In this document: piece by piece, positions 535-45,559 of the stretch
How positions within the stretch are numbered: the stretch's first letter is position 1
Layout: each line of letters opens with the position of its first letter
IMG/VR virus record: IMGVR_UViG_3300046788_000219
Location: 1-46,919 of that record
From: a virus
Taxonomy: Duplodnaviria; Caudoviricetes
DNA length: 46,919 nt
Strand: one strand, 5' to 3'
Position numbers and translations under genes: made by a program
Notes under the pieces: generated by a model
Databases searched by the model: none
Told to the model about the DNA's origin: nothing
Seen by the model: only the letters and a program-made list of their open reading frames with translations

Positions 535-568
535 TCGCTCTTTCCCCCAACAGGAAACGGAGGTCCTG

Positions 569-829
569 ATGCTTGTTCTCTCCCGCAAGGAAGGTCAGTC
601 AATCGTGATTCCCTCGCTCGGCATCCAGCTGGTTTTCATCCGCTGCAAGGATGGCCAGTGCCGCGTGGGCATCGAAGCCCCGAGGGAAGTCTCGGTGTAC
701 CGAAACGAAGTCCTTGAGGCGATGCGTGATCGTAAGGATGGGCCGGCTTCGCCTGGGCCGATAAGCCGGATGGGTCAGCCGGATTCCTTTCCCGGAGCGC
801 TGACAACCGGCCAGGCCGTCAAGCCGTGA
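569..829 (+). CDS. csrA: Carbon storage regulator CsrA/RsmA family RNA-binding protein
   Basis: MLVLSRKEGQSIVI...RVGIEAPREVSVYRNEV fits the CsrA signature; GGAGG RBS before ATG 569. Confidence 0.93.
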   Translation: MLVLSRKEGQSIVIPSLGIQLVFIRCKDGQCRVGIEAPREVSVYRNEVLEAMRDRKDGPASPGPISRMGQPDSFPGALTTGQAVKP

Positions 830-926
830 GTGGCGGCAATCGAGCGCATGTGAGATCCGCTTGCCGTCGCGGATGCAAAACCACGGTGACGGCTGCTTTC
901 TTCAACCCTGTTTCACGGAGGATCGA

Positions 927-1217
927 ATGATCAAGCCAACAGTTGGCCGCGTGGTCTGGTTCTATCGGTTCAGCGGAGCCGGGCTCGGGCATTCTGGACC
1001 CCTTGCCGCGCACGTGGCCAAGGTCCATTCGGATCGGATGCTCAACGTCATGGTGATAAACGAGACGGGGACGCCGTTCGCCGCCCCTTCGGTCCCGTTG
1101 ATCCAGGACGGCGAAGAGGTTCCTGCGAGCGATTACTGCTGCTGGATGCCCTACCAGATTGGACAGGCGGCGAAGACAGAAGTGGCCGAAAAGGCGATCG
1201 CTGCCGGCACGTTGTAG
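927..1217 (+). CDS. Conserved phage hypothetical protein (KPTVGRVVWFY type)
   Basis: GGAGGA RBS, ATG 927; N-terminal motif recalled from many phage proteins. Confidence 0.75.
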   Translation: MIKPTVGRVVWFYRFSGAGLGHSGPLAAHVAKVHSDRMLNVMVINETGTPFAAPSVPLIQDGEEVPASDYCCWMPYQIGQAAKTEVAEKAIAAGTL

Positions 1218-1253
1218 GTTTCCCGATCTCTGTTTTTCACGGAGGATTGCGAC

Positions 1254-1394
1254 ATGCGGAAGGTTCTGATTCTGGCCCTGGTGGCCGCCTGGTTCCTGTC
1301 GGTGGCCGGCGAGGCGTCCGCTCGGTGCGGGCGCGGGTTGTTCCGGCATCGCTGCGGTGGGCGTATTCACCTTTTCCATCGGCACTGCCGCTAA
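1254..1394 (+). CDS. Small exported peptide, 46 aa (not in the ORF track)
   Basis: GGAGGA RBS; MRKVLILALVAAWFLSVAGEASA|RCGRGLFRHRCGGRIHLFHRHCR has a signal peptide with an A-S-A site. Confidence 0.75.
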   Translation: MRKVLILALVAAWFLSVAGEASARCGRGLFRHRCGGRIHLFHRHCR

Positions 1395-1473
1395 CCACGA
1401 GTTTCCCCGGCCCGGCTGAAAGCGTTTGGGCGAGATGCGGACGGCCGGGTCTGGGGAATTCTGAGGAGTAACG

Positions 1474-1818
1474 ATGACGACGAAGCGGTTCCACACGGCG
1501 TCCGTGCTCACATTGATTGACGGCATTGTTTATGAGGAATTCGGCAAGGTTTGTGAACTCGCTGAGTGGGTGATGGGCCATCCGATCTGGACACACGAGT
1601 ACGCCGATCGTGACTTGGCCGCACGAATCAAGTCAGCACTGGTCAAGCAGCATCCGAAGCTGGCCGACTTCGCCAAGGGCAGCGAGGAGCACTGGAAGGA
1701 TGCGTTGGCCCGCGCCGAGAAAACCTACGGCAAAACCCTGTTGATCACGAAGGGCGATGAAGAACGCATGGAAGGGCCATTGACCTCACTCCAACGCATC
1801 ATCGGAGACAAGCCATGA
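1474..1818 (+). CDS. Hypothetical protein
   Basis: GAGGAG RBS, 114 aa, ATGA-coupled to the next gene. Confidence 0.8.
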   Translation: MTTKRFHTASVLTLIDGIVYEEFGKVCELAEWVMGHPIWTHEYADRDLAARIKSALVKQHPKLADFAKGSEEHWKDALARAEKTYGKTLLITKGDEERMEGPLTSLQRIIGDKP

Positions 1819-2036
1819 AGCCCTGGTTATTGGAACACCTGGAAGCCTCGCAAGGCTGGCTGATCGACGGCCGCTATGCGACCGAAGACGAGGCCACCTA
1901 CCAGAAGCGGACGACGCCGAGCGTCTACCAGCGGCGCGTGCGCCTCGCCCTGGTGAATGTGCCCATCGCCGGGGGCGCGATGCGCACGGTGGAATCGGAG
2001 CGGTTTCGCAGGGCATGCGGGAGGGTTTCGTCATGA
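1815..2036 (+). CDS. Hypothetical protein
   Basis: GGAG RBS, ATGA overlaps at both ends. Confidence 0.7.
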   Translation: MKPWLLEHLEASQGWLIDGRYATEDEATYQKRTTPSVYQRRVRLALVNVPIAGGAMRTVESERFRRACGRVSS

Positions 2037-2860: not shown

Positions 2861-2873
2861 AAGGAACCCGACC

Positions 2874-3857: not shown

Positions 3858-3864
3858 CGAGCCG

Positions 3865-4575: not shown

Positions 4576-4611
4576 GGAAGGCAAAGGCTCGATTTGGAAG
4601 GAAAGGATTCC

Positions 4612-10382: not shown

Positions 10383-10619
10383 ATGCAGGGCAAGCTGCTC
10401 GTTTGCGTCGCCAACTTGAAGAGGATGCCCGAATTCCGAAAGGCCGTGAAGCAATCCGGCAGCCGGTGTCGTTCGGCGATTCGCGTCAATTGGGATCACG
10501 ACGGGAGCCGAAGCCTCATTCTGAAACTGGATGGCCCCCTTCTCCCCAAGGTGACCGAGGCATGCGTCATCCCGACGCTTTCGCTGGACGATTTCATTCA
10601 ATTGCTCAAGGCTCGCTAG
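10383..10619 (+). CDS. Hypothetical protein
   Basis: GAGGGGG RBS; fills the TerL-portal gap. Confidence 0.6.
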   Translation: MQGKLLVCVANLKRMPEFRKAVKQSGSRCRSAIRVNWDHDGSRSLILKLDGPLLPKVTEACVIPTLSLDDFIQLLKAR

Positions 10620-10634
10620 GCCAAGGAAGGCCCC

Positions 10635-13577
10635 ATGACAACCCTGAACGGACGCCCGAAAAAGCCCGTCGAGATCAAGGCCACCATCTCCGAAGCGAAG
10701 GAGCAGGCAAAGCTGCTGCGCGTCCAGGCTGCCGCGGCGAAGGCCGGCTACGAACGCGATCTCTATGAGGGCCTCTGGGGTTGGTGGGACGACTTCGGCG
10801 GCTCGGATCTCTGGGACCGGCTACGCCCCTCGAGCCAGGACGAAGACGGCGAGCGCTGGGTTCCGGCGAACATCCCCAGCGACCGCCGGCACGGCTACAA
10901 CTGGCCCATCTGGCGCACGCAGGTCGAGCTAGACGAGCGCCGGCAGCAAAGCCGCATCCTTTGCCAGACGAACAGCTTCGCGATCGGCCTGCTCAAGAAC
11001 ATGACGAATAACGTCATCGGCAAGGGATTCAGTTACAAGACGAAAGCGAAGGGTGACGATCCGACGCCCGAGGCGGAAGCCACTGCGAAAAAAACGCAGA
11101 CGTTCGTTGACTACTTCCTCCGCTCTAACCGCTTCAACGCGAACCAGATCGACCCGCGGAGCAACATGCTCGTCGCCATGACGCGCGAGCGGGAAATCTT
11201 CCGGCGGGAGAACGGCGGGGACGGCGAGTGCTTCGTCCGGCTGTTCCACCAGGAGAACGGCTGCACGTACATCCGCTTCATCGAACCGGAGCAGATCAGG
11301 GAAGGGCACGGCGGCACGGCGCAGGAAGGTTGGTCCGTCGGCATTCGCCATTCGATGCAGCCCGTCGAGGACGTGGAGACGCCCGAGGAATACGCCGCCT
11401 TCTGGCCGGACCCGTCCGCGAAGGGTGGCGGGGGCGGCAAGCCCGAGGATAAGGGCAGCTGGGAGATGATCCCCGCGAAGGAGATCGTCCACCTGAAGGG
11501 CCTCGACACGGCAAGCACGGTCAAGCGCGGCATTAGCCCTTTCCAATTCGACACGCTCAAGGCCCTCGAGCGGGCCGCCAAGCTGCAGAAACACGCCAGC
11601 ATGGGGGCGGCCGTCCGCGCGGCGACGGCGGAAATCTGGCAATCGACCACAGCCACGCAGGCCCAGGCCCAGGACCTGAGCGACGCCGTGAAGGTCTTCA
11701 CGCGCACCAACGGAACCACGGGCCACACGGAGAACGTGGAGCGGATCCGGCCGGGCACAGTGCGCCGCGTGGGTGGTGGGCAGGAGCTGGCCTCGCCGCC
11801 GGCTGATCAGACGCAGAGCTATCTGTCCGGCGTGAGCGGGGATCTCCGCCAGGCGAACGCGGCTTTCTGCGCTCCGGAATTTTGGACCGGCGACGCGAGC
11901 AATGGGAATTATTCCAGCCTGGAATCGGCAGCTGCCCCGGCCGTGCGCGCCGGGCAGACGGACCAGGAATACTACAAGATTGCGTTCGGGCTGATCGTGT
12001 GGAAGGCGATCCTCTGGGCCGTGGAGTGCGGGCTTCTCCCGAAGGACACGCTGGACGTCGTGGACCTGGACGTCGAGGCCCCGGCCGTGCTGCATCGCAA
12101 CGAGCTGGAGAAGGCCCAGGAAGATCAGCTGGGTGTCATGAACGGGTGGAAGGACCGGCAGACGTGCGCGAGCGAGCGCGGGCTGGATTGGGATACGGTG
12201 CAGGCGAATAACCAGGAGTATCAGGACGAGCAGGGGGGTGGGGCGGGGGGTGGCGCGTCGCCGTTCGGACTTCCGCCCGAGGGACAGCCGGGCTCAGGCG
12301 GCGGCCTGAGTGGCCCCGTTTCCGAATCCCTGCTGGAGTCGATGGACGCCGTTTGCCTGGAAGCGGGGTTCACGGGGGTCATCACGGATAAGCGCGGGCG
12401 GAAGATTCACTACCTGAACGGCAAGCGCGTTGCGGCTCAATCCTTCGACCCGACCAAGGAAGAATTCGGGCCTCGGACGCGGCAGCAGAATCAGCGGCAC
12501 CAGAAGCGGCAGGGGTCCGTCTACAACCGGAAGACGAAGCAATGGGAACAGCCGGCGAAGGCCATTGAACCGGGGGGCAAAAACCTAGCCGACGAAGTTC
12601 ACGCTGCGGGCAAAGAGATTCCGAACGCCTTCAACGGCCGGCCTCACGCGGAGGCGCCGGAGTGGATGCCTCACAAGGTTCACATCCTTGACGTTTACGA
12701 CAAGCTGAAAGCCGATGGAAAGCTTGGCGGAAAGACCCTCGATCAATTCAAGGCGGATCTTCTGGCGGCGCATCAGCGCGGGGATATTCGCCTAGCGAGA
12801 ACCGATCTCCCCCAGGCTACGGGCGACCCCAAGAAAGTCCAGGACAGCTCTATTAAGCATCTCACGTCGGAATTCAACAACGTAGAAATTCCGCCGGCGA
12901 ATTCCAGCGAACCGGCGACTCCGCCGAGCAACATAGACCAAGCTACTTCAGCATTCCGCGGACACCTTGACGCCGCGAGCAAGAAAAACCTGGACCCCGC
13001 GGCTCTCGATGCTGCAATTAAGGGTGCGGCGAAAACGCTCTCGGTCAAAGATTCCGCAAAAGTCGCGAACGATTTAGGCATTCCTGGCCGCTTCAAATCG
13101 AAAAAGGATGCCCTGGATCACATTTCGAGAAGAATTCACGGGATGCAAAATACCGTTGAGCGCGTCGATGTTTCTTCGGCCACTAAGCCGGCTTCAAAAC
13201 CGAAGGCTAAGCGCCCAGCCAATCCGTCTTTACCAGAACGGAAAGCGATACCGATTCAGCTTCCAGTGGAAAATAAGCCATACCCGAGCATCAACAGCAA
13301 CGATCGCCACAACGCCATGAACTCCAGCGAGCACACGCATAAGCTGGATCCAAAAAACCTCATCGCCACCCAAAGGAACGTCCTGAGCGATGCGCTAGAC
13401 CGCATCAAGGGTCCGCTGCGTGAGGATAAGCCGATTCTTGTCATTAGGCATAACGGAAAGGACTACATCGAAGAGGGGCACCATCGCGCGGTAAAGGCCA
13501 TGCAGACCGGGCAGAAGGTGCCCGCGCGAGTCATGACCGTTTCGGCTGACGGAAAACTACACCCGATCAAGGAATGA
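10635..13577 (+). CDS. Portal protein with long C-terminal extension ending in a ParB/Srx-like domain
   Basis: Portal motifs DGECFVRL, RFIEPEQI, EIVHLK...KRGIS, GDASNGNYSS in the first ~535 aa; C-terminal PILVIRHNGKDYIEEGHHRA. Confidence 0.88.
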   Translation: MTTLNGRPKKPVEIKATISEAKEQAKLLRVQAAAAKAGYERDLYEGLWGWWDDFGGSDLWDRLRPSSQDEDGERWVPANIPSDRRHGYNWPIWRTQVELDERRQQSRILCQTNSFAIGLLKNMTNNVIGKGFSYKTKAKGDDPTPEAEATAKKTQTFVDYFLRSNRFNANQIDPRSNMLVAMTREREIFRRENGGDGECFVRLFHQENGCTYIRFIEPEQIREGHGGTAQEGWSVGIRHSMQPVEDVETPEEYAAFWPDPSAKGGGGGKPEDKGSWEMIPAKEIVHLKGLDTASTVKRGISPFQFDTLKALERAAKLQKHASMGAAVRAATAEIWQSTTATQAQAQDLSDAVKVFTRTNGTTGHTENVERIRPGTVRRVGGGQELASPPADQTQSYLSGVSGDLRQANAAFCAPEFWTGDASNGNYSSLESAAAPAVRAGQTDQEYYKIAFGLIVWKAILWAVECGLLPKDTLDVVDLDVEAPAVLHRNELEKAQEDQLGVMNGWKDRQTCASERGLDWDTVQANNQEYQDEQGGGAGGGASPFGLPPEGQPGSGGGLSGPVSESLLESMDAVCLEAGFTGVITDKRGRKIHYLNGKRVAAQSFDPTKEEFGPRTRQQNQRHQKRQGSVYNRKTKQWEQPAKAIEPGGKNLADEVHAAGKEIPNAFNGRPHAEAPEWMPHKVHILDVYDKLKADGKLGGKTLDQFKADLLAAHQRGDIRLARTDLPQATGDPKKVQDSSIKHLTSEFNNVEIPPANSSEPATPPSNIDQATSAFRGHLDAASKKNLDPAALDAAIKGAAKTLSVKDSAKVANDLGIPGRFKSKKDALDHISRRIHGMQNTVERVDVSSATKPASKPKAKRPANPSLPERKAIPIQLPVENKPYPSINSNDRHNAMNSSEHTHKLDPKNLIATQRNVLSDALDRIKGPLREDKPILVIRHNGKDYIEEGHHRAVKAMQTGQKVPARVMTVSADGKLHPIKE

Positions 13578-14575
13578 CCCTCACCCGCCAACTCGCCACC
13601 CACGGCCACGCCCGCCAGCTCGCCGCCAGCGCCGCGGCCGACCGGATCGGCAACGCCACCGATAGGGCCTTGGGCGCCGTCTGGCGCGGCCTGATGTCCA
13701 TCCTGCGCACGCACACCCAGGGCGCAACCGCGTTCATGGAGGCCCGGCATCTCCTGCGTGGCACGCTCCCCGCGCTCGACGCCGTCCTTGCGGATGGCCT
13801 GGCCGGACTCGCCACGGAAGCCCACGAGCATTCCGCGAAGGCCCTGGCCCGCACGCTGCCGGCGAACTACCTGGCTGCGGCGCTGGCCCAGAAGGGCAAC
13901 GTCCACCGCGTCCGCGAAAGCCGGGATGTGATGGAGGCCGGTTTGCTGCAGTTCGCCCTGGACGCCGCCGGCCTGCGGATCGACATGCCCATGGACGCCA
14001 TCCCCACCGACGAGACGGCAGCCCGCAACCTGATTCAGTCGCTCCTCTTCCCGCCCCCTGACCGGCTCAGCGTCTACCGGATCGTGCGCGGGCTGCAGAT
14101 CAACGGGCAGACCTGGGAGCAGCGGCTACGGGGCACGGTAAGCGCCAGGTTCAGCCCGAACATCCTCGCCGGGATCATCAGCCTCGGTTATTCGCAGGGG
14201 AAGGATGTGAAAGCGATCGCGCAGGACCTGCGCCCGGCGATGGAAGGGATTCGCACCTCGGCGAAGCGGCTAGCGCGGACCTACGGGATGGCAATCGCCC
14301 ACCACACCCAGCAGCAGACGGCGGACCAGCTCGGGGACCTGGTGATTGGGTGGACGATTCACAGTGTGCACGGGAACCCGAATTCGCGGCCGTGGCATGT
14401 CGCGCGGGACGGGACGGAGTATTTCAAGGAGCCGGAGCCGTGGCAGAAGGGGCTGGCCCAGCTACCTCATCCACCGCTCGAGGCTGCGGATCCGGCGGAG
14501 CGTCCGAAGGGGGCGCCTCACATTGCCTGGAATTGCCTTTGTTATGCGACGCCGATTCTGAGGCCGCTGGGTTGA
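13574..14575 (+). CDS. MuF/SPP1 gp7-like minor head protein
   Basis: RLART, SRPWHVARDG, HPP...WNCLC motifs; follows the portal. Confidence 0.8.
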   Translation: MTLTRQLATHGHARQLAASAAADRIGNATDRALGAVWRGLMSILRTHTQGATAFMEARHLLRGTLPALDAVLADGLAGLATEAHEHSAKALARTLPANYLAAALAQKGNVHRVRESRDVMEAGLLQFALDAAGLRIDMPMDAIPTDETAARNLIQSLLFPPPDRLSVYRIVRGLQINGQTWEQRLRGTVSARFSPNILAGIISLGYSQGKDVKAIAQDLRPAMEGIRTSAKRLARTYGMAIAHHTQQQTADQLGDLVIGWTIHSVHGNPNSRPWHVARDGTEYFKEPEPWQKGLAQLPHPPLEAADPAERPKGAPHIAWNCLCYATPILRPLG

Positions 14576-14972
14576 GGATGCTTCGGGCGGCACGGGCATT
14601 CGCTTGGTTGAGGCAATTCCCGCATGGCCCGGCATCTGGATAGAACCAGCAGCCGCATGATGGGCAGCCTTCTCGGCCCGGCTCGCGAGGTGGCGTGAAG
14701 AATCGTTTAAGGGCGCGGAGTCCATCACGGACGTTTCCGGGCGGGATATCGCCCCGTGACGCCAGGTATTCCCGCCACAGATCCCCCGCGACCATCTCCA
14801 ACTCCTGCAGCTTTTCGAACTCCGCAACCATGCGCAGCAGATCCTGGCCCAGCAGTCGCACCGTCGCGGCGCCGGTCTGATGCTCTTCCTCGAGGCGGTC
14901 GGACAGGACCTGCAGATAGGCCTGCGCGTCGTCCAGGAGTTTTTGCAGCGTGTGGGTCACTGGTTGCGACAT
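14424..14972 (-). CDS. Antisense hypothetical protein with CxxC...CxxC
   Basis: GGAGGG RBS, coupled to the upstream minus-strand gene; 3' end overlaps MuF by ~150 nt. Confidence 0.55.
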   Translation of the reverse strand: MSQPVTHTLQKLLDDAQAYLQVLSDRLEEEHQTGAATVRLLGQDLLRMVAEFEKLQELEMVAGDLWREYLASRGDIPPGNVRDGLRALKRFFTPPREPGREGCPSCGCWFYPDAGPCGNCLNQANARAARSILNPAASESASHNKGNSRQCEAPPSDAPPDPQPRAVDEVAGPAPSATAPAP

Positions 14973-15373
14973 TCGCCCTCCACAATCTGCGGCTCATCGG
15001 CGACTCGCGCCTTGTCGAAAGCCTCGCCGGGGTAGGTCTCGGCGAGGAAGTCTTGCTTGGTCACAATGACGGCTTTGTTCTGGACGGGCGCGTCTTCCAT
15101 CATCGACTTTATTACATCAGCCGTTTTCTGCGATAGGTCGGACACCGGAGGAACCTTCATCCAGGGCTGCGCCGGCCTCAGCATCGCCACCACGCGCCGG
15201 GCAATGTCGTCCTTGTCTTCGTCCGAGAGGATGAGGAGGCCCTGTCGGTCCATTTGCATCGGGGGAGGCTCAGCCGGAATCGGCCCATTGGCGTTCTCGT
15301 GCCATCGCCACCAGCTTCCATCCTTGGCTTGCCATACCATCGGAATTTGCCCCCGGATTCCCCGCGCATCCAT
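14957..15373 (-). CDS. Antisense hypothetical protein
   Basis: Protein-like C-terminal part of the long minus ORF; fills the MuF-protease gap; start uncertain. Confidence 0.55.
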   Translation of the reverse strand: MDARGIRGQIPMVWQAKDGSWWRWHENANGPIPAEPPPMQMDRQGLLILSDEDKDDIARRVVAMLRPAQPWMKVPPVSDLSQKTADVIKSMMEDAPVQNKAVIVTKQDFLAETYPGEAFDKARVADEPQIVEGECRNQ

Positions 15374-16597: not shown

Positions 16598-16666
16598 TCT
16601 GCGGGCTTGCCTGAATGAGATTCACACGGCCGGCGGAGCCGGTCTGGACACGGAAAGGGATTTCCG

Positions 16667-17404: not shown

Positions 17405-17464
17405 TCCCCCTGGCTTGAACGGATTCGGACCCGGGGCTTTCCTGAAAACGCAAGGACGCGACCC

Positions 17465-18643
17465 ATGTTCAAGATGATCAACGTCAAGGAACTCAAGCGG
17501 CAGTACGAGCTTGAGCCCCAGCAGTGCATGGCCGACCTTTGCGAAGGCCTCGAGTCGAAAGAGCTGCGCCCCGAAAACTTCTCGATGCGCGACCTGTTCG
17601 AAGCCCTCATCCCGAACGGCCGCGAGCTTCTGTACGAAATCCAGTTCCGCCGCGGCCGTGGCAACCGGGCTGCGATCCTGGAAGCCGCCCAGGCCGTCTC
17701 CACGGGCGACTTCAGCAACATCACGGGCCAGATCGTCTACAACAAGATCCGCGAAGCCTACGAAGACCCGTCGCTGTTGTGGCCCGAACTCTGCACGACG
17801 CAGACGACGGAGTTCCTGAACGGCGAGCGCATCCCGGGCGTCGGCCAGATCGGCGACAAGGCCGAAGTCGTCGAGGAAGGTGCCCGCTACCCCTACGTTG
17901 GTCTGAACGAAGAGTGGACCGACACCGCGGCGACCATCAAGCATGGCTTCATTGTTCCCGTCACGCGCGAAATCATCGTCGCCGACCGCACGAGCCTGGT
18001 TCTCAGTTATGCGTCCAAGGGCACCCGCTGGGCTTCCGTTCTCAAGGAAAAGGAAGTCCTGGATTACGCGACCGGCCAGAAGAACAACTACAACCGCAAC
18101 GGCGTGAGCCTGAACACCTACCTCACGTCGGGCGCGTACATCAACAGCCAGACCGGCAATGCCCTCGACGGCCAGGCCAACGAATGGCGGGCCCTCGAGA
18201 AGGCCGATCTGCTTTTCGACGCGATGACCGATCCGAACACGGGCGAGCCCATCGGCATCCCGGCGAATCCGACCATCCTGGTTCCGTCCGCCCTGGTCCG
18301 CACGGCGAATCGCATCGTCGGCGCGACCGAAGTTCAGACCGTGGACATGCGAGCCCAGACGACCACGATCCGCACCACGGGCAAGAATCCCTACAGCGAC
18401 CGCCAGCCGAAGGTGCTGAGCAACCAGTACGTGAAGGCCCGCACGGGCTCGACGTCGCAGTGGTTCTACGGCGATTTCAAGGCCGCGATTCTGTGGATGA
18501 GCGTTTGGGACATCGAAGCGACCCAGGCCGCCAGCAACAGCGAGGCCGAATTCGAGCAGGACATCTGGGCGCGTCACAAGGTCAGCTACCGCGGCGTGGG
18601 GCAGATGTACGAGCCCCGCAAGCTGACCAAGAACGACACCTGA
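17465..18643 (+). CDS. Major capsid protein (HK97 fold, Mu gpT-like)
   Basis: 392 aa, strong codon bias, FSNITGQ, EVVEEGARYP, KHGFIVPVTRE, WFYGDF. Confidence 0.88.
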   Translation: MFKMINVKELKRQYELEPQQCMADLCEGLESKELRPENFSMRDLFEALIPNGRELLYEIQFRRGRGNRAAILEAAQAVSTGDFSNITGQIVYNKIREAYEDPSLLWPELCTTQTTEFLNGERIPGVGQIGDKAEVVEEGARYPYVGLNEEWTDTAATIKHGFIVPVTREIIVADRTSLVLSYASKGTRWASVLKEKEVLDYATGQKNNYNRNGVSLNTYLTSGAYINSQTGNALDGQANEWRALEKADLLFDAMTDPNTGEPIGIPANPTILVPSALVRTANRIVGATEVQTVDMRAQTTTIRTTGKNPYSDRQPKVLSNQYVKARTGSTSQWFYGDFKAAILWMSVWDIEATQAASNSEAEFEQDIWARHKVSYRGVGQMYEPRKLTKNDT

Positions 18644-19117: not shown

Positions 19118-19178
19118 AACGAATCACTCGCAAAGGCCGAGGATCGGCCTTCTTTGAGAAGGAAAAAGGAGTTTCCGC

Positions 19179-19862
19179 ATGGCCGACCCCATTCAGCCCC
19201 AGGTAACCACGGTCGCCTTCAAGAGCGTTGGCTCGGGTGGCAATTCCGTCTTCCAGGAAATGACCAACCTGGGCGCCCAGCGCTACTGCCAGCTCGAGGC
19301 CCCGGGCTACGAGATGGCCCGCAGCGGCCGGAGCTTCTGTGGCGGCATCCAGGCCGTCACGAACGGCACGATTCCGCTCGTGGATCTGCCGACCACGACG
19401 GCGAAGCACATCCTGTACAACGCCGCGAACCCGGCGAACAACCCGCCGCGCCATCTGGTGATCAAGCGGCTCTCGTTCAGCTATGCCTCGGGCACGCTGG
19501 GCGCGTTCGGCTCGTCCGTCTTCGCGGGCGTTTCGCCCTCCGCCGTCACCGGCAACTGTATCCTGACCGCCAACGGCACCGGCTTCTCGATCGGTGCTAC
19601 CCGTGGCACGGGCGCCTCGGTTGCCTTCATGGATACCGCGAAAACCGGCTTCCCCTCGGGTGCGGCCCTCGCCCTGTTCGGTGGCATCGCTCACGGGGCG
19701 GAAACCACGATGAGCATCGGCTACACGGTGGACATCTCGAATTCGCCGCTCATCGTGCCGCCGGGCTTCGGGCTCAACTTCGGCGTGCTGGCCGATACCG
19801 GCACCACGGCCAAGTACCTGATGAGCGTCTTCTGGGATGAGGTCGAGGCCGTTCTCCCGTAG
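19179..19862 (+). CDS. Putative virion protein B
   Basis: AGGAG RBS; Gly/Thr beta-rich; paralog of the next gene. Confidence 0.8.
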   Translation: MADPIQPQVTTVAFKSVGSGGNSVFQEMTNLGAQRYCQLEAPGYEMARSGRSFCGGIQAVTNGTIPLVDLPTTTAKHILYNAANPANNPPRHLVIKRLSFSYASGTLGAFGSSVFAGVSPSAVTGNCILTANGTGFSIGATRGTGASVAFMDTAKTGFPSGAALALFGGIAHGAETTMSIGYTVDISNSPLIVPPGFGLNFGVLADTGTTAKYLMSVFWDEVEAVLP

Positions 19863-19925
19863 TCCACGGACGGACTACATGAACACACGGAGCCAATGAC
19901 GGGCCGCCGATAAAGGAGTTTCGCA

Positions 19926-20582
19926 ATGGCCGATCCCATCCAGGGACAAGTAACGACGATCAGTTTCAAATCGACCGGCTCGGGTCAGGGCCTTGTCGAA
20001 GAAATGTCCAACCTCGGCAATGCCCGCCTGGCCCAGCTCGAGCCGGTTGGCTTCGAAATGGCCCGCTCGGGCCGTTCCTTCCAGGGTGGCACGAGCGCCG
20101 TCGCCGGGGCCGTGGCCGCGATCATCGACCTGCCGACCACCACGGGCCCCGTCGTCTTATTCAACTCGACGCCTTCGAGCGGAACCAAGGTGCTTGTCGT
20201 CCGTCGCCTCTCCTTCAGCTACGGCTCGGGCACGCTGGGCGCTACCGGCTCGACTCTGTTCGCCGGTGTGACCGGCGGCAAACTCGCCACGCCGTTGACA
20301 GCGAATGGCGCCAACTTTGCCACGCAGGCGAGCCGTAGCGCCGCAACCCCCGTCGGGTTCATTGCGGCGGCTCAGACCGTGGTGCAGGGCATCTGGACGT
20401 GTCTGGGTGGCATCGGCCACGGTGCCGCAACGACCACGAGCGTCGGCTATAGCGTGGATCTCGCCTCCCATCCGTTCATCGTGCCCTCTCAGTTCGCCCT
20501 GGTGATCGGCGTGCTGGGCGTCGCGACGGGCAACTACATGCTCTCCGTGAACTGGGACGAAGTGGAAGCGATTCTCCCGTAA
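19926..20582 (+). CDS. Putative virion protein B'
   Basis: Shares MADPIQ.QVTT, EMARSGRSF, RLSFSY.SGTLGA, WDEVEA.LP with the previous gene. Confidence 0.8.
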   Translation: MADPIQGQVTTISFKSTGSGQGLVEEMSNLGNARLAQLEPVGFEMARSGRSFQGGTSAVAGAVAAIIDLPTTTGPVVLFNSTPSSGTKVLVVRRLSFSYGSGTLGATGSTLFAGVTGGKLATPLTANGANFATQASRSAATPVGFIAAAQTVVQGIWTCLGGIGHGAATTTSVGYSVDLASHPFIVPSQFALVIGVLGVATGNYMLSVNWDEVEAILP

Positions 20583-21161: not shown

Positions 21162-21961
21162 AAGTGATGCTCGGGGTTCCGGGTCTGGTCGTTCCGATGG
21201 AGCTTTGGGACTTCATCGAGCACGCATCCCTGAACCACGACGTCAAAGTATTCGGCTCCTGCAGGCCGGTCGGCAACTTCAACAAGACATGGTGCGAGGG
21301 GAACAATGCTTTCGAGCGCGGCGAGCGGGAACTGTTCGCCATGCTGCATACGGACACGTTCCCCAATTGCTACGGCTGGCTCGATCCGCTGATTGAGGAT
21401 GTGGTTCAGTACAATCTCGCCCTGCTCAGTGTGCCGATCGCGATCAAGGATCCGCGGGGCAAGATGAGCTGTGGGCTCGGCGACGAGAACGACCCGTGGA
21501 CGCCGTTCCGGCTTCTGACGGCGACCGAGTTGATGCAGCAGCCCCCCGTCTTCGACGCGGCGACGCTGGGCTACCCGGGGCGAATGCTCCTGCACAATAA
21601 CGGCTGTTGGATCGCGGATCTGCGATTCCCGCAGTGGCGGCAAACGGACAGCGAGGGCGGCCAGATAGCCCATTTCGAATTCAGGGAAAAGAACTACCGC
21701 AACGCGGCCGGCGAGTGGGACACGATTGACGAGAGCGAGGATTGGTTCTTTTCCCGCAAGGTCCACGAACTGGGCCTGCCCAGTGCCATTAGCCGCCGGG
21801 TGACGATCCACCACGAAGGGAAATGGCGCTTCTCGAATAACAAGGCCTGGGGCAGCTACAAGCAGGACGAGGACCTTCGGTACAAATGGGATCGATCACA
21901 AACCCCGGACGAAGGATCGGCCGGAATGAACCCTGCCCATGCGGCAGCAGCAGGAAGCTGA
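21158..21961 (+). CDS. GT-A fold (GT2-like) glycosyltransferase
   Basis: FAMLHTD, SEDWFFSRKV, TIHHEG motifs. Confidence 0.75.
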   Translation: MKVMLGVPGLVVPMELWDFIEHASLNHDVKVFGSCRPVGNFNKTWCEGNNAFERGERELFAMLHTDTFPNCYGWLDPLIEDVVQYNLALLSVPIAIKDPRGKMSCGLGDENDPWTPFRLLTATELMQQPPVFDAATLGYPGRMLLHNNGCWIADLRFPQWRQTDSEGGQIAHFEFREKNYRNAAGEWDTIDESEDWFFSRKVHELGLPSAISRRVTIHHEGKWRFSNNKAWGSYKQDEDLRYKWDRSQTPDEGSAGMNPAHAAAAGS

Positions 21962-22380: not shown

Positions 22381-22436
22381 CGAACCCAACGCCCCGGCAG
22401 GACGCCGCGGCCTGAACCGAGGAAAGGATTCCGCAC

Positions 22437-22892
22437 ATGGGACGCAAGTATACGGGCATCGCCGCCACCGTGGCCACGGGCACGAACAAGACCACGGGCA
22501 GCGTGCAGTCCGCCAGCACGATCCGGCCCAAGGTCTACGAAATCCTCGTCGGCTCGGAAGCGACGCCGGCCGACCAGGCCGCACAAATGACCGTGCTGCG
22601 GTTCACGGCCGTTGGCACGCCCGGCGGCACGTTCACGCCGATTGCGCTGGACCCGGGCGACCCGGCCTCGCTTGCGGTGTTCAATCAGGGCGTGTTCAGC
22701 GTCGAGCCGACCTACACGGCGAGCAGTAACCTCTTGCTGTTCACCTGGAACCAGCGCGCGACCTTCCGCTGGATCGTGAATCCGGGCTATGAGATCGTCT
22801 GCCCGGCGACCGCCAGCAACGGCATCGGCGTTCGCTCGCTTCTGTCCACGAGCACGCAGGCGGCCGATACCTCGATTTCCTGGGAGGAGTAA
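22437..22892 (+). CDS. Putative virion structural protein
   Basis: Strong RBS; Thr/Ala beta-rich; ends ISWEE. Confidence 0.75.
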   Translation: MGRKYTGIAATVATGTNKTTGSVQSASTIRPKVYEILVGSEATPADQAAQMTVLRFTAVGTPGGTFTPIALDPGDPASLAVFNQGVFSVEPTYTASSNLLLFTWNQRATFRWIVNPGYEIVCPATASNGIGVRSLLSTSTQAADTSISWEE

Positions 22893-29608: not shown

Positions 29609-30532
29609 ATGAAGCTGGCTGAGCTGTTCGTTCAATTCACGGCGAAGGGCACCGAAGGCCTCAAAGCGGCTACGGCGGAGGTGCGCTCGGACCTGGATAA
29701 GACGGCGAAGTCCATCCATGCCGGCCTGGAGGAAGCCTTCGGCAAGGAACACGCCGCGCCCACGATGAAGGAGTTTGCCAAGGACAACCCCGGCAACGTC
29801 TCCTCTGGCGGCATCGCCGGAATGCTCGAAAGCATCCTCAAGCCGGCCGGGCTCGCCCTTGCTGGCTTCGCCGCAGCCGCAGCCGCCAGCTTCGCCGCGA
29901 TGGCCGTCTCCGGCATCCAGAACAGCGCCCAGTGGGATGCGATCACCCTGCAGCTCGGCTTGCTGAGTCGTGAGTTCGGCAGCGTCTTCCTTCCCGTCGT
30001 GGAGCTGGTTTCCGATGTGCTCGCGCGGATGATCCCGATTGCCGAGATGTTCACCGACATGATGCAGCCGGCGATTCAGACGCTCACCGACTCCTTCTTC
30101 AAGGTCCTCGACGCCGTTTCCCCGCTGGTTAAGGCCCTGGTCATGACCGAGGCCGTCTGGCTGAGCACTATTTTAGAAGTCGTCTCTATCGTCGTGGACG
30201 TCTTCGTTCCCGTGATCCAGGTGGCGGCGAACGCCCTGAAATGGTTCGCGGATACCCTTCGCCAGGTGCTGAATCAGATCCGCTCGGTATTCGGGCTGAA
30301 GGATCTGACCAACGTGCAGAAGGGCAGCGCCGCGCGATTGGGTGCCCGCACGGGCGGCTTCGAAGACGTGACAGCCGCCTACCAACGCATTGCCAAGCTG
30401 AGCCTCGCCGCCAGCTTCGGCGGCAAGAGCCGGGAGGCGAGGCAACTGGAAGTCGCCGAGCAATCGCTGGGCGTTCTGGGAGCGATCGAAGGCAACACCG
30501 GCCGGGCGGAGCCCGCCGTCACCACACGGTAA
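29609..30532 (+). CDS. Short tape measure protein (307 aa)
   Basis: MKLAELFVQFTA start, amphipathic Ala-rich helices, position after the chaperone. Confidence 0.8.
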   Translation: MKLAELFVQFTAKGTEGLKAATAEVRSDLDKTAKSIHAGLEEAFGKEHAAPTMKEFAKDNPGNVSSGGIAGMLESILKPAGLALAGFAAAAAASFAAMAVSGIQNSAQWDAITLQLGLLSREFGSVFLPVVELVSDVLARMIPIAEMFTDMMQPAIQTLTDSFFKVLDAVSPLVKALVMTEAVWLSTILEVVSIVVDVFVPVIQVAANALKWFADTLRQVLNQIRSVFGLKDLTNVQKGSAARLGARTGGFEDVTAAYQRIAKLSLAASFGGKSREARQLEVAEQSLGVLGAIEGNTGRAEPAVTTR

Positions 30533-30544
30533 GGATGCCGCGAC

Positions 30545-31669
30545 ATGCCGCTAATCCCCGTCGCTGGCGGCTTCATCCCCGCCGGCAACATCCAGAACGA
30601 GCCGGCCGGCGATATCGGCGCAAACAAGCTCATCAATCAAAGCGGCATCACGTCGAAGGTGACCAGCTATCCCGCCGGCTGGTACGAGGTCGAAGGCTAC
30701 CGCGAGATCATGAACAACGATCAGCAGATCGTTTACCGCTATTTCGAGGGTCCGTGGGTCAGCCGGAAGGCCTTCTATGATTTCATGTTGGGCTACAGCT
30801 ACACCGACACGAGCGGCACGATCAGCCGGCAGATCCCGAAGAATCACGAGGAGTACACCTGGCTCTATGCCGTCGATTGCGAACTGATCGAGGGCAAGGG
30901 AGCGATCACGGCGACGCTCGACAATGCCACGCCTCCCAACCAGACGGGCGTGATCGAATACGTCAACACGGACCCGACGGTGCCGACCAGCGGCGTCACG
31001 GGCATCGCGAAAGTGAAGATCACCTATCGCTGGCTCGATTACGAGATTCGCAGCGATGAGGAGCTTCGGGACACGTTCAACAATGACGAGCTTTACCGGA
31101 ATGTCACGCGGCATTCGGATTGGGCGATAAAAGCGCTGCCGATCCCCGGCGCAACGAAACTACGATTCGCCGAAGCGCCGCTCCTCAATAAGCCGATCGA
31201 GGCTGGCCTGGCTCAGTTCATCTTCCCGACGCGAGAGATCACGTACACCTGGCATGACGTGCCGGACGTGCCCCAGGTGAATATCGACCTTTGCTCCGGC
31301 TCCGTGAATGACGCTGCTTTCGATGTGCCGATTCAAGTAGGCGGTTTTCCGGTGAGCGGGTACGGCTCCGAAACCGACGGCTACCCGGCGCAGACGCTGC
31401 TTTTCATCACGCCGAAGGTCATACGCAAGCGATCCGTCCTGGGCCGCGTCTCCTTCGACATTGCGTATAAGTTCCTCTACCAGCCCCAGGGATGGAATAA
31501 GTTCCCGGCGATCGTAGAGGATCCTGTCACTCACAAGACATCTCTGAAGTTTGTGCTCGCGACCTTCGATGGCACCGCGACCGGGCAGACGGTCTATACG
31601 CCGTTCGCCTTCGATCTTCTCTTTAAGGCCCCCAACCAAAAGGGCCGCTACCAGAACGGCAACTGGTAA
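30545..31669 (+). CDS. Putative tail tip/baseplate protein
   Basis: Position after TMP; GSVND, AQTLLF, YKFLY...GWNK. Confidence 0.65.
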   Translation: MPLIPVAGGFIPAGNIQNEPAGDIGANKLINQSGITSKVTSYPAGWYEVEGYREIMNNDQQIVYRYFEGPWVSRKAFYDFMLGYSYTDTSGTISRQIPKNHEEYTWLYAVDCELIEGKGAITATLDNATPPNQTGVIEYVNTDPTVPTSGVTGIAKVKITYRWLDYEIRSDEELRDTFNNDELYRNVTRHSDWAIKALPIPGATKLRFAEAPLLNKPIEAGLAQFIFPTREITYTWHDVPDVPQVNIDLCSGSVNDAAFDVPIQVGGFPVSGYGSETDGYPAQTLLFITPKVIRKRSVLGRVSFDIAYKFLYQPQGWNKFPAIVEDPVTHKTSLKFVLATFDGTATGQTVYTPFAFDLLFKAPNQKGRYQNGNW

Positions 31670-37018: not shown

Positions 37019-37060
37019 TAGCGCACGGACGCGCGGACAGAGCACAGCGAAAGGATTCGC

Positions 37061-37708
37061 ATGGATCGCCTCACTTCCCTCCTGGCGGCCGTCCTGGTCG
37101 CAGCCTCGGTCGGCGGCACGCGCGCACCCGACGGCACCGAAATTCACGTCGACATGCCGCCCGAGTTGCAGATGCACAACACCGGCGGCAGCGATGGCCC
37201 GCGCGGACCCGGAAGCGGCAGCGGGCTCTGCGTCTTCACCTCCACGGAACACGCCGGCATCTGGCAGGGAATCGACTCGCTCAAGGGCTTCCAGAAGTGG
37301 ATGACCCACTACCCGGGCGGCGGCACGCCCGACAAGCTCGCGAAGATGATCAAGCGGCGCTGCGCCGAGTTGAACATCCCCGAGCCGGTCTACATCCAGG
37401 TCGAAGGCTGGGACCCAGATATCCTCAAGGCTGCCTGCAAGGGCGGACGAATGCCGTGCATCACCTACGCCCAGAGCCCCACGGGGCGATACGGCGGGGC
37501 GCGCATCGCCCACATGGTGAATCTAGTTCACTTCGATGAGCGCGGCAACGTCGCGATCCTCGACAACAATTATCCGTGCTCGGCGAAGAAGCCGAACAAC
37601 TACGAATGGATGGACGCGGCGACGTTCAAGCGCGTGCATTCGATGGGCGGGGCGTGGAGCGTGGTGTTCTTCGAACCGGGGCCTCCGCCGCTTCCGAGGA
37701 ACCCATGA
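37061..37708 (+). CDS. Exported papain-fold (C39-like) cysteine peptidase
   Basis: Signal peptide; GSGLCVFTS (Cys), AHMVNLV (His), ILDNNYP (Asp/Asn). Confidence 0.7.
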   Translation: MDRLTSLLAAVLVAASVGGTRAPDGTEIHVDMPPELQMHNTGGSDGPRGPGSGSGLCVFTSTEHAGIWQGIDSLKGFQKWMTHYPGGGTPDKLAKMIKRRCAELNIPEPVYIQVEGWDPDILKAACKGGRMPCITYAQSPTGRYGGARIAHMVNLVHFDERGNVAILDNNYPCSAKKPNNYEWMDAATFKRVHSMGGAWSVVFFEPGPPPLPRNP

Positions 37709-39439: not shown

Positions 39440-39478
39440 GACGGATTTTCCCAACCCTCCAAGGATGGAGTCTTTGAC

Positions 39479-39862
39479 GTGAATACGACCGCTCTTTTCT
39501 ATCTTGGCGCCGCCCTAGTGGGTTACTTCATCCGGCACAAGTTCCCGCCGGCCAGCAGCTCGCCCGCCGCGCCCGTGAGCCCGCCGGCCATCGTCGCCCC
39601 GGCCGTTCCCGGGATCGCCAACCCGTTCGCGCAGAATCACCCGGCCCTGACCGCGCTGCTCTCGCAGGGGGAGCAGGTCGTTCAGTCGGCGCTGCAGGAC
39701 TGGCTGGCCAATGGCCTTCCCGGCGCCGCGCCGGCCGCGAGCGCCACGCACCCGCTGCTGACGGCTGCGGACCAGATTCGGCAGATACTGCAGGCCGTGA
39801 GCACCATGCAGGCGCCCGCTGCGCCGGTGGTTACCCCGGTGGTTGTGCCGAAGCCTGCGTGA
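39479..39862 (+). CDS. Membrane-anchored Pro/Ala-rich protein
   Basis: GGAG RBS, GTG start, N-terminal TM. Confidence 0.75.
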   Translation: MNTTALFYLGAALVGYFIRHKFPPASSSPAAPVSPPAIVAPAVPGIANPFAQNHPALTALLSQGEQVVQSALQDWLANGLPGAAPAASATHPLLTAADQIRQILQAVSTMQAPAAPVVTPVVVPKPA

Positions 39863-42341: not shown

Positions 42342-42353
42342 AAGGGAGACAGG

Positions 42354-43377: not shown

Positions 43378-43449
43378 GCTCCTGAAGCTCAAGGGATGAG
43401 CGGTCCTCTCGTAAGGGTCAGGTTGTGGGTTCGACTCCCACCAGGAGCA
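43378..43449 (+). tRNA. tRNA-Thr (CGT), CCA not encoded
   Basis: Acceptor GCTCCTG/CAGGAGC, D-arm GCTC/GAGC, anticodon loop CTCGTAA, T-arm GTGGG-TTCGACT-CCCAC. Confidence 0.85.
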
Positions 43450-43473
43450 GACGAAGTATACCACGGGCCGGGC

Positions 43474-43692
43474 TCATGAGGCCCTCGCCGTTTCCTTGCG
43501 GGGGCGTCCGAAGCTCTTCCGGGGGATCTTTGCGAGGTCAGGACGCCCAACATAGGCCGCAAGGGCCTTCGCCGTTAGCTCGCTCAGGGGCAGATCTTCC
43601 TTCAACGCTACCGCTCCGGCAACGCGCTTCAATTCAGGGTCGCAATAGACTCGAATATCTGCGGCCATTTTCACCTTCCTTTTGGTCGCCAT
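43474..43692 (-). CDS. Ribbon-helix-helix-like regulator with a GRPRK (AT-hook-like) tail
   Basis: IRVYCDPELKR...LPLSELTAKAL; AAGGA RBS. Confidence 0.7.
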   Translation of the reverse strand: MATKRKVKMAADIRVYCDPELKRVAGAVALKEDLPLSELTAKALAAYVGRPDLAKIPRKSFGRPRKETARAS

Positions 43693-43746
43693 AACCCATT
43701 CCTTTGAAATAGTATCCTGCGACCGCTCCACGTGCAAGAACAAAAA

Positions 43747-43790
43747 AAGAATAAGTTGTTTGACTTATTGGGGTCGAGTCTCTTATTCTT
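43747..43790. promoter_or_regulatory. Divergent promoter/operator region
   Basis: TTGACT-N18-TATTCT; inverted repeats AAGAATAAG/CTTATTCTT and AATAAGT/ACTTATT. Confidence 0.65.
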
Positions 43791-43988
43791 CTCCTGTCGC
43801 TCACGATCCTCACCAGATCATTGACGCGGCCCCGCGAGTGACGACACCCAGCGTTTAAAGCACGGGTGGACTACGCGGGCAGTCGCCTGAGGCAGGATGC
43901 CTCCGCTTGCCGGGCTGCTTTCGACATGGGGCAGCTCGGCAGGCAGGGCGGCTGGTTTTCGAACCTCTTACCCGAAAGGACGGCTTCC

Positions 43989-44192
43989 ATGCTCGGCCTG
44001 ATGAATCTCTTCTCCGCGATCGCCCGGCTCACTCGATCGATCAACCGCAGCGCCGACCTGTTCGACGCCGCCAACGAAGGGCTGGCGAAGCAGCTCGCCG
44101 TCGGGCCGGAGATCGAGCCCGAGGCGCCGGCGCTCACCAATGGACACGGGCGGGCGCCGAACGGGCGGAAGACGGTTGCGGCGCGGGAGTGA
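43989..44192 (+). CDS. Hypothetical protein
   Basis: AAAGGA RBS in a hairpin; MLGLMNLFSAIARL... Confidence 0.7.
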   Translation: MLGLMNLFSAIARLTRSINRSADLFDAANEGLAKQLAVGPEIEPEAPALTNGHGRAPNGRKTVAARE

Positions 44193-44387
44193 TCATCCCT
44201 TCTGCGGCGTTCCTTGCTTGAGGGCTTCGATGTCCTTCTCCAGCTCCTGCACGCGATCCGCGAGCTTCATGCACAGATCCCGCCAGCGGGCGGCCGTTTC
44301 TGTCGCCGTGGGCCATTCGCGGGGAGGAAGGGCTCGAACGTCCTCAAGCAGCGCCTGCACGTTTTCCGCATACGATTTTGATACCAT
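44193..44387 (-). CDS. Small coiled-coil protein
   Basis: GAGGT RBS; convergent with the previous gene. Confidence 0.55.
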   Translation of the reverse strand: MVSKSYAENVQALLEDVRALPPREWPTATETAARWRDLCMKLADRVQELEKDIEALKQGTPQKG

Positions 44388-44471
44388 CCGTGGAACCTCG
44401 TCACAGGGGTCCCCGCGTCCGGCGATTGACCACAAGACGATAGCCGGCGCGGGGTTTTTGATTTCCCCAGA

Positions 44472-44513
44472 TGGGCGCTACAGGATTCGAACCTGTGACC
44501 CCCAGCGTGTCGA
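44472..44513 (-). other. attP core: 3' half of tRNA-Val(GAC)
   Basis: Minus strand TCGACAC-GCTGG-GGGTC-ACAGG-TTCGAAT-CCTGT-AGCGCCC-A, ~50 nt past the integrase stop; no 5' half present. Confidence 0.85.
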
Positions 44514-44565
44514 TGCGGGGATCTGGGTAAGTGCGCCCCGTATTCTGGAGACGGGGCGCAGCGCG

Positions 44566-45519
44566 TCACGTCTCCCGCTTCTTCCTCTTAATGGCGCTCG
44601 TGGCCACGTCGCGCAGGTGCGCCCGCTTCTGGGCCGCCTTGGAATACCATGCGATCATCCGCGTGTCCGCATGGCCCATCTGATCGGCGATCTGCCGATC
44701 CCCCACGCCCGCTTCGATGGCCCACGTACAAAACGAGTGCCGAACGCAATAGCCGCTCACCCGGTCCACTACGCCCTCATCCAGACCGATCCGCTTGGCC
44801 CAGCGTCGCAAATGCCGGGCGAAGACGTGGCGGTCCTTCCAGGGCTCGCCGTAGGTGTTCAGGAAAACGAACTCCTGGCCCTCAACTTTCTTGCGGTACA
44901 GGTTTTGGAGGAACCGCAGGATGCACGGCTCAAGGCCGAACATGCGCGGTTTTCCTGTCTTCGCGCGGGTCTTGTGCTTTTGCTTGACGACCACGCCGGC
45001 TTCGAAGTCGATCTCATCGAAGCGAAGCCCGCGCATCTCGGAAGGCCTGGCTCCCGTCCGGCGCAGGAAGAACAGGGCCCGACGCAGCGGCCGGCTCTTG
45101 CATCGCATGAGCGCGATGTATTCGACCGAGCTGGCTTCGCGGCGCGGGGTGACCGGGAGCTTGAGGTTCCGCGGCCGGCGATAGGGCGTGCGTTCGATCA
45201 GCTCCTCATCCTCTGCCCAGCGGAAACACGCGAGAATCGTCGCCATTACGCGGCGTTTCGTGGCGTTGCTCTTCCACTGCGGATTGAGTTGCAGCCAGCG
45301 CGTCAGATCGTAGCGCCGGCATTGCTCAATGGTCTGATTGCCGAACTGCTCCGCGAAGCGGGCCAGCTCGCGCGTAGCGTCTTCCAGGGCATGGGCGGAG
45401 TAATCCTCCGTGCCCTTCCGTTGCTTGAGGTGTTCGAGATAGGCCTCTGTGGTTTTTCGTACCGTCCAGGGACCTGCAGACCCTTCATCCGAAGGGCTGA
45501 AAAGGCGAAAGGCGTTCAT
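44566..45519 (-). CDS. int: Tyrosine integrase
   Basis: TGARPSE, KHKT, YCVRH, QMGH, WY catalytic motifs; GGAGG RBS before ATG 45519. Confidence 0.93.
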   Translation of the reverse strand: MNAFRLFSPSDEGSAGPWTVRKTTEAYLEHLKQRKGTEDYSAHALEDATRELARFAEQFGNQTIEQCRRYDLTRWLQLNPQWKSNATKRRVMATILACFRWAEDEELIERTPYRRPRNLKLPVTPRREASSVEYIALMRCKSRPLRRALFFLRRTGARPSEMRGLRFDEIDFEAGVVVKQKHKTRAKTGKPRMFGLEPCILRFLQNLYRKKVEGQEFVFLNTYGEPWKDRHVFARHLRRWAKRIGLDEGVVDRVSGYCVRHSFCTWAIEAGVGDRQIADQMGHADTRMIAWYSKAAQKRAHLRDVATSAIKRKKRET

Positions 45520-45559
45520 GCTGTTGCCTCCGTTGGCGTTACCCAGCACGGAGGCTGCT

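Follow-up and report, generated by a model that had tools for sequence, protein, structure and literature searches.

A phage csrA gene and candidate CsrA-type hairpin operators on the virion genes of IMGVR_UViG_3300046788_000219

The IMG/VR record IMGVR_UViG_3300046788_000219, analyzed here over its full 46,919 bases (the window), encodes the regulator CsrA and carries hairpins that place GGA in a loop ahead of several start codons, frequently over the Shine-Dalgarno (SD) sequence itself. Its gene content according to Pfam and PHROG includes an integrase, an excisionase-like gene, RecE/RecT, a replication initiator, a terminase, a portal protein, and a capsid protein. An initial annotation, made from the letters alone, took the hairpins for a phage-wide translational regulon. 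The comparisons described below offer good support for a real and statistically strong set of candidate CsrA-type operators on the virion genes. This set is narrower than first claimed, covering about 9 to 11 of 78 starts, with eight of the nine SD hairpins in the late block.

The csrA gene and the leader hairpins

The csrA gene (positions 569 to 829, plus strand) encodes a protein of 86 amino acids and is placed in the early block, ahead of RecE/RecT and the replication initiator. The initial assignment to the CsrA family is confirmed by a match to PF02599 with 67.4 bits against a cut-off of 27, spanning profile positions 1 to 52 of 53, with further matches to phrog_9500 and to CsrA/RsmA entries of the PDB (E value of 2e-7). 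Aligned to solved CsrA/RsmA structures, the protein keeps L4, R6, and R45, the latter corresponding to R44 of E. coli; L4 and R44 are named as critical for RNA binding by CsrA (PMC7652899). The C-terminal tail is rich in proline and glycine. A single-protein search with the phage CsrA in viral contigs found no relatives. The SD of csrA itself lies in a weak, noncanonical hairpin with a 5-bp stem and an 8-nt loop (551 to 568, plus strand), which does not appear in the centroid fold; autoregulation of csrA through this hairpin is possible. Two early genes just after csrA share the SD context CTGTTT(TT)CACGGAGGAT (905 to 926 and 1231 to 1253), a CANGGANG word with no stable stem.

Every hairpin string quoted in the initial annotation is found at its position ahead of an in-frame start. 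Nine SD hairpins, all on the plus strand, show the same architecture: an ANGGAN hexaloop on a stem of 3 to 5 bp, with the GGA ending 4 to 13 nt before the start codon and the loop reading AAGGAT in five cases. Five leaders, those of the genes starting at 16673, 19179, 22437, 30545, and 37061, contain a second hairpin 23 to 27 nt upstream of the SD hairpin. These upstream hairpins, 31 to 35 nt before the start, are not SDs yet display GGA.

Two of the five sites first described as single belong to the set. The hexaloop GGA-AAGGAT-TCC (4600 to 4611) precedes the ATG of the replication initiator at 4612 and is the only early SD member, and GGCC-AAGGAA-GGCC (10619 to 10632; -6.1 kcal/mol) precedes the portal gene (10635 to 13577). 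The other three, at int, xis, and 43972, drop out through a noncanonical loop or a competing fold; at int, GGAGG is paired within a stem of -19.5 kcal/mol, so that the SD is buried rather than looped.

Eight leaders had been described as tandem, and both halves stand in the five named above. The leader of the gene 16667/16673 to 17404, upstream of the capsid gene, combines a 7-bp GGA hairpin (16628 to 16644) with an SD hexaloop (16651 to 16666); the label "decoration" was given to this gene by position only and finds no Pfam or PHROG match in its favor. An AGGAT pentaloop (19133 to 19151) and an SD hexaloop (19161 to 19176) precede a virion-block gene of 227 amino acids (19179 to 19862), and an AGGAC pentaloop (22395 to 22407) with an SD hexaloop (22421 to 22432) precedes a gene of 151 amino acids (22437 to 22892); the ESM Atlas names no family for either protein. 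The tail-region gene at 30545 to 31669 (374 amino acids) follows a GGA hairpin (30503 to 30515), contained in the 3' end of the preceding gene, and an SD hexaloop (30527 to 30540). The last tandem leader consists of an ACGGAC hexaloop (37021 to 37034) and an SD hexaloop (37047 to 37060) ahead of the gene 37061 to 37708, whose protein has a hydrophobic N terminus and a Cys/His/Asn pattern recognized by eye; it has no family match, and the PDB sequence search named none.

The remaining three leaders keep one half. The major capsid gene (17465 to 18643) has the SD hexaloop CGC-AAGGAC-GCG (17449 to 17460) with an unstable upstream partner at 17417, and the gene 39479 to 39862 has the SD-proximal hexaloop CTCC-AAGGAT-GGAG (39457 to 39470) with an unstable partner at 39438. 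The leader at 19859 to 19917, before the gene 19926 to 20582, shows the opposite arrangement, a strong upstream ACGGAC hexaloop (19859 to 19878) followed by further GGAs at 19889 and 19915, with an unsupported SD stem of 1 bp. The genes between 19179 and 20582 are tandem paralogues, 53% identical, from a virus-only family that is duplicated in the relative G051 as well. An upstream AGGAA pentaloop hairpin before 21985 (21948 to 21960) was missing from the initial list.

Membership is uncertain for a folded leader at 43885 to 43960 (plus strand) with one AGGAT pentaloop (GGA at 43895). The region 43880 to 44000 is very stable (-62 kcal/mol; z of -3.66), and a sigma-70-like site upstream of it (43760 to 43789) faces away from a small minus-strand gene (43474 to 43692). 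Apart from portal, capsid, and initiator, the targets are labeled by their position. The lysis targets named initially are not borne out, as no Pfam or PHROG match was obtained for any such target and no lysis gene was identified.

Enrichment of the hairpins and comparison with relatives

The statistical analysis is based on 78 starts chosen by coding score, homology, and SD. An SD GGA lies in a loop of any kind at 20 of the 78 starts, compared to 15.4 ± 3.2 when the SD is fixed and the rest shuffled (p = 0.11), so that the claim of GGA-loop hairpins over the starts fails in its general form. It holds for CsrA-type loops, defined as A(N)GGA(N) on a stem of at least 3 bp with a free energy (dG) of ≤0 and with the motif letters fixed in the shuffles. 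By this definition, 15 of 74 motifs near the 78 starts lie in a hairpin, compared to 2.09 in the shuffles, as do 9 SD sites compared to 1.3. Neither count is reached in 1,000 shuffles at five stem/energy thresholds, among them a dG of ≤0, -1, and -2. A null with the 3' flanks swapped among 32 SD motifs yields 1.38 compared to the observed 9 of 32 (0 of 2,000), and automatic gene calls are concordant (15 of 61 versus 1.83). When the same loop shape is applied to the 63 other three-base cores, 25 of 1,585 occurrences lie in a hairpin, compared to 15 of 89 for the GGA core. Across the genome, the plus strand contains 25 canonical hairpins (one a terminal duplicate), 16 of them within 60 nt of a start, and the minus strand contains 6, none near a start.

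The upstream positions are enriched as well. Upstream GGA hairpins number 13 compared to 5.4 in SD-fixed shuffles; tandem pairs number 5 compared to 0.74 (0 of 1,000 shuffles), or to 1.3 with every GGA fixed (p = 0.008). GGA peaks 33 to 35 nt before starts, with 15 counts over these three positions versus about 2 per position elsewhere. Late SD hairpins tend to follow gaps of at least 25 nt (6 of 18 versus 2 of 25; p = 0.052). GGAT is found in six of the nine hairpin SDs and in 2 of 23 nonhairpin ANGGAN SDs (p = 0.002); hairpin SDs thus appear to trade SD strength for the CsrA consensus. Simple word counts are not enriched in the window (CANGGA, 5 versus 3.6; ACGGA, 12 versus 8.2), and CANGGA at SDs is enriched in the relative G006 only (16 versus 4.8).

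Coincidence might account for such hairpins, since every SD includes GGA and a GC content of 63% makes short stems frequent. The nonsignificant result for loops of any kind fits this explanation, as does the observation that 13% of all GGAs on either strand are part of a hairpin with an energy of -3 kcal/mol or lower. It is opposed by the motif-fixed and flank-swap nulls, by the lack of enrichment in 38 of 40 related sets under the same test, and by the compensatory changes in orthologues described below. For the canonical set, chance is largely refuted and would be a most improbable explanation; it continues to apply to the sites at int, xis, and 43972.

An alignment of the capsid protein retrieved 185 loci, 80 of them viral, and the csrA search covered 50 of these, for the most part longer records. 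The gene exceeds the cut-off in 10 of the 50, including five of the ten complete records. Of forty related sets scored in the same way as the window, only two reach a p of ≤0.01: G006 (6 versus 1.32; 1 of 1,000) and the 6-kb locus L162 (2 versus 0.06). None of the five complete csrA-negative viral records is enriched. When loops of any kind are counted, SD hairpins are scarcer in most relatives than in their shuffles, and this depletion makes the window an outlier. Among 140 distinct relatives, with the twin of the window counted in, the capsid start has an SD hairpin in 7 cases compared to 2.4 (p = 0.014). The complete relative G043 carries three divergent csrA-like genes (G043:C1:46511-50678) and has no canonical hairpins at its starts.

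The stem covariation sought in relatives is found at the portal, capsid, and 19179 leaders of G006. The portal stem is GGCC/GGCC in the window and GAGC/GCTC in G006, which amounts to two compensatory pairs, and the 19179 stem GGAAA/TTTCC is replaced by an entirely different 4-bp stem, TTCC/GGAA. The capsid stem, CGC/GCG in the window, reads TTTTGC/GCAAAA, TGGC/GCCA, or GGC/GCC in relatives; the hairpin with altered stems is found in L008, L162, L167, and L081, and is not found in L002, L003, L004, L082, L083, L085, L005, and L006. The orthologue of 16673 has an SD hexaloop hairpin in L162. This covariation rests on few sequences.

In a tree of capsid sequences, built from the 34 nearest rows and L072, the window groups with G006 and G051 (support of 100/100). 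The two csrA carriers of this clade are enriched, whereas its complete csrA-less member is not. The latter, G051:C84, is a 51-kb circle without hairpin enrichment (2 versus 1.57), in which eight virion genes have a good SD followed by ATA at the expected start (L270:10328; L271:1175, 1925, 3581, 4298, 5526, 11919, and 12381). These genes are the orthologues of the portal gene, 16667, the capsid gene, 19179, 19926, 22437, 27687, and 28477, and in six cases the counterpart in the window bears a hairpin. The next canonical codon follows 7 to 46 codons on in seven of them and 2 codons on in one. G occupies position -1 in all eight ATA starts, compared to 19 of 47 ATG starts (p = 0.002), mostly in the context CYG-ATA-GC. 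No deaminase or initiation factor is found among the 73 called proteins of G051:C84 (Pfam, E ≤ 0.05), and no tRNA by ARAGORN. The pattern points to selection on the initiation of this virion gene set, in one lineage. In the window, the probable tail-region gene 28477 has an apparent TTG start and the SD ACGGAA-GGGA with a 2-bp stem; its orthologue is among the G051 genes that start at ATA.

Four virion genes of L072 (G039), the capsid gene among them, start at G-ATA (5678, 6414, 9784, and 10334). This relative is distant, with a capsid 35% identical and on a separate branch, and its G-ATA starts are apparently of independent origin. L309, the sole match to a DNA pattern for G-ATA starts, was dismissed as chance. 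A tentative and rather doubtful extension is an exchange of devices, in which CsrA with tandem GGA operators, as in the window and G006, would have been replaced by G-AUA starts in G051 and independently in L072. High-copy virion genes would then be the fixed object of a translational checkpoint in one Planctomycete phage lineage, and a further factor would switch the G-AUA genes on.

These starts also bear on the idea that the hairpins act without any protein, weak structures setting the initiation rate or mRNA stability and GGA being looped only as the SD. The stems are weak, the folds of whole leaders mostly do not surpass those of shuffles, and in G051 and L072 the same genes seem to be damped by weak ATA starts with no known protein. 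On the other hand, the upstream hairpins display GGA without being SDs, a brake would bury the SD in a stem, as at int, the loop size is fixed at six with the sequence shifted to GGAT, and SD hairpins are depleted in most relatives. Protein-independent tuning is accordingly considered quite improbable.

Possible readers of the hairpins

CsrA dimers bind ANGGAN loops, bridge sites 10 to 63 nt apart with an optimum of >18 nt, and block ribosomes (PMC7652899, PMC4066749); the 23- to 27-nt hairpin spacing of the window falls within this range. CsrA ligands obtained by SELEX likewise show an ANGGAN hexaloop on a short stem (PMC7652899), and the AAGGAU hexaloop, the RsmZ-2 loop, binds RsmA/RsmN at about 270 nM (PMC3791407). 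It is moderately probable that the phage CsrA represses high-copy virion genes through the A(N)GGA(N) hairpins on their SDs. According to its gene position, CsrA would be made early; a dimer would occupy the SD hairpin, together with the upstream hairpin in leaders that have one, and ribosome loading would be blocked. Relief would come late in infection, most simply through an excess of late mRNA over the repressor. Virion mRNA that is leaky or premature would stay silent, in the lysogen as well, and the output of independently initiated virion genes could be adjusted relative to one another. The same sites may also be bound by CsrA paralogues of the host.

A number of observations weigh against repression by the phage CsrA. 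The CsrA-type loop criterion was chosen post hoc, after sight of the leaders of the window and G006. The concentration of SD hairpins in the late block (8 of 43 versus 1 of 29 early) is not significant alone (p = 0.075). Nine of the ten csrA-positive relatives show no enrichment, so that csrA does not imply the regulon; in the comparison with csrA-less relatives proposed at the outset, G051 lacks the hairpins, and csrA carriage alone is no predictor of them, with one of ten carriers enriched. The hairpins of 16673 and 30545 have no counterpart in G006, and the joint loss of csrA and hairpins represents one lineage. Ensemble folding of the free RNA leaves the SD GGA unpaired at four of the nine sites, with an intermediate state at two and pairing mostly elsewhere at three (17465, 22437, and 30545), and many stems are marginal; several hairpins would therefore need a protein to hold them. 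The phage protein does not reach the equivalog cut-offs of NCBIfam (NF002469 and TIGR00202; 52 versus 73 and 48.2 versus 70.1 bits). About half of natural CsrA homologues did not repress a standard target (PMC13443453), so the activity of the phage CsrA cannot be assumed. Finally, the host alone could supply the binder, since 20 of the 22 Planctomycetota genomes behind the loci hold 3 to 28 csrA matches each, which are not copy numbers.

This last point leads to an unlikely though serious alternative, in which host CsrA paralogues read the hairpins and tie virion synthesis to the state of the host. The phage CsrA would then have another job, repressing host defense or motility mRNAs or antagonizing host CsrA by mixed dimers. 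Besides the host csrA matches, the csrA-positive relatives without sites agree with other uses of the phage gene, and phage RsmA has been proposed as an anti-CRISPR measure (PMC8450108). The same hexaloop also occurs in host flagellin leaders, as AAGGAT, AAGGAA, or AGGGAA in four of seven genes examined, 40 to 41 nt upstream, in G138 and G226, both of which have FliW; three flagellin leaders of G065, G070, and G057 have no such hexaloop. The flagellin hexaloops are at the same time in favor of repression by the phage CsrA. Across 314 host starts of four Planctomycetota genomes, 7 of 147 motifs lie in hairpins compared to 3.8. The alternative is countered by the one complete close relative that lacks both csrA and hairpins, by the absence of enrichment in all five complete csrA-negative viral records, and by the protein itself: in an alignment of 12 CsrAs of the family, which leaves out two further matches, only the proteins of the enriched phages, the window and G006, keep His/Tyr before the key Arg. 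This feature is also seen in host flagellar CsrAs, and the residue is presumably important. G065, G069, and other Planctomycetota genomes reach 27 to 28 csrA matches; a maximum of 15 csrA per genome is quoted elsewhere (PMC13443453).

In the wider viral sample, csrA-centered loci (74 of at least 9 kb, from 80 fetched) have 42 motifs in hairpins compared to 22.4 expected. Six of these loci reach a p of ≤0.01, several being close kin and thus partly redundant. The 97 capsid-centered loci have 26 motifs in hairpins compared to 20.8. In the csrA-carrying viral contigs L320, L323, L332, L339, L348, and L362, starts in the vicinity of csrA bear several canonical GGA hairpins.

Translational repressors of phages that act autogenously or in the manner of RegA/RegB are established. 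Another RNA-binding protein of the phage, either an autogenous virion protein or a RegA/RegB-like one, could read the loops, and most of the late proteins, like many of the early ones, lack a family assignment. The agreement of loop sequence, loop size, stem length, and spacing with CsrA ligands, together with the presence of an encoded CsrA, speaks against such a protein; RegB cuts GGAG, which is found in only one of the nine SD loops. A reader of this kind is therefore very improbable.

The plasmid RsmQ is reportedly another csrA/rsmA homologue on a mobile element. Among phages, csrA has been described in 30 of 2,517 genomes (PMC7366521), and many csrA/rsmA examples are known (PMC8450108). 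As here, a mobile element encodes a CsrA homologue and the host genus has CsrA; the available text of these two papers proposes host targets or leaves the role open, with no operators on the elements' own genes. The leaders themselves resemble those regulated by bacterial CsrA/RsmA/RsmE, such as glgC of E. coli and hcnA of Pseudomonas, in the ANGGAN hexaloop over the SD, the short stems, the second site at dimer-bridging distance, and a protein with L4 and R44 (PMC7652899, PMC4066749, PMC3791407). They differ in that the candidate targets are phage virion genes and the regulator gene lies on the phage. No CsrB-like RNA is apparent in the window, where Rfam finds only a tRNA and eight intergenic stretches hold no canonical hairpin.

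The CsrA-FliW-flagellin (hag/fliC) system of B. subtilis and others likewise places a brake on an abundant self-assembling structural protein (PMC7652899), and a fliC leader stem-loop, CAAGGAUG, has the same AAGGAT loop as the phage sites (PMC13418256). The location of csrA beside TldR and flagellin is described there as well. In contrast to that system, the phage has many candidate targets rather than one and no FliW, which was found neither in the window (G000) nor in G006. In the Salmonella prophage PSAP2-2, CsrA activity alters the output of a temperate phage, induction being affected through cI levels; the protein is that of the host, and the available text reports no GGA sites (PMC12371270).

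No account of CsrA operators on a phage's own genes was found in the full-text literature on phage CsrA, subscription papers being mostly outside the search, in agreement with the initial annotation, which knew of no such regulon. Phage csrA genes are common, and published ideas on their targets point to host mRNAs, whereas here the portal, capsid, and other virion-block genes of the phage carry candidate operators of textbook shape. Repression by the phage CsrA, if true, would add a translational layer to late control in temperate phages, much as CsrA restrains flagellin. It is testable in E. coli or B. subtilis without phage culture, since the RNAs are short and defined and the protein has 86 amino acids. 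The csrA-less sister with G-ATA starts on the same genes serves as a natural control and as a lead to a second mechanism.

The phage genome and its likely host

Bases 1 to 99 are found again at 46807 to 46905, a terminal repeat that suggests a circular assembly; in IMG/VR, the record is listed as linear with a completeness of 57%. The stretch 7465 to 27917 recurs with 99.995% identity in a second IMG/VR record, which rules out an assembly error as the source of the late leaders. This second record is also the only match to a portal query and to a query with the 19179 alignment, and a search of cultured phages gave seven weak matches. Four DNA sequencing runs contain short contig pieces only; two of these cover leaders without differences, and no leader variants occur among the matches listed from the four runs. 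No RNA data set holding this phage is listed among the sequencing runs.

The window is likely a temperate phage of a Planctomycete, as indicated by its integrase, a tRNA-Val match, and the titles of its capsid relatives, 21 of 25 capsid-related loci from genome collections being titled as Planctomycetota lineages. The tyrosine integrase (44566 to 45519, minus strand; Pfam and PHROG), whose SD lies in a stem, is not a member of the hairpin set. A tRNA-Val-like 3' half (44472 to 44513, minus strand) adjoins its end and is likely the attP core; it is 95% identical over 42 nt in two Planctomycetota genomes, with some match in 36 of 401 genomes. A full tRNA-Thr(CGT) gene (43378 to 43449) has no close match in the host genomes (best, 81%). 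The two tRNA elements lie on either side of a small regulatory region.

The head-morphogenesis and protease/scaffold genes are separated by an insertion of two minus-strand open reading frames (14424 to 15373), the first of which overlaps the gene 13574 to 14575 at that gene's 3' end. In the integrase SD region (45525 to 45554), a canonical hairpin with the hexaloop ACGGAG (GGA at 45550) forms on the opposite, plus strand, and a 27-nt palindrome follows at 45560 to 45586.

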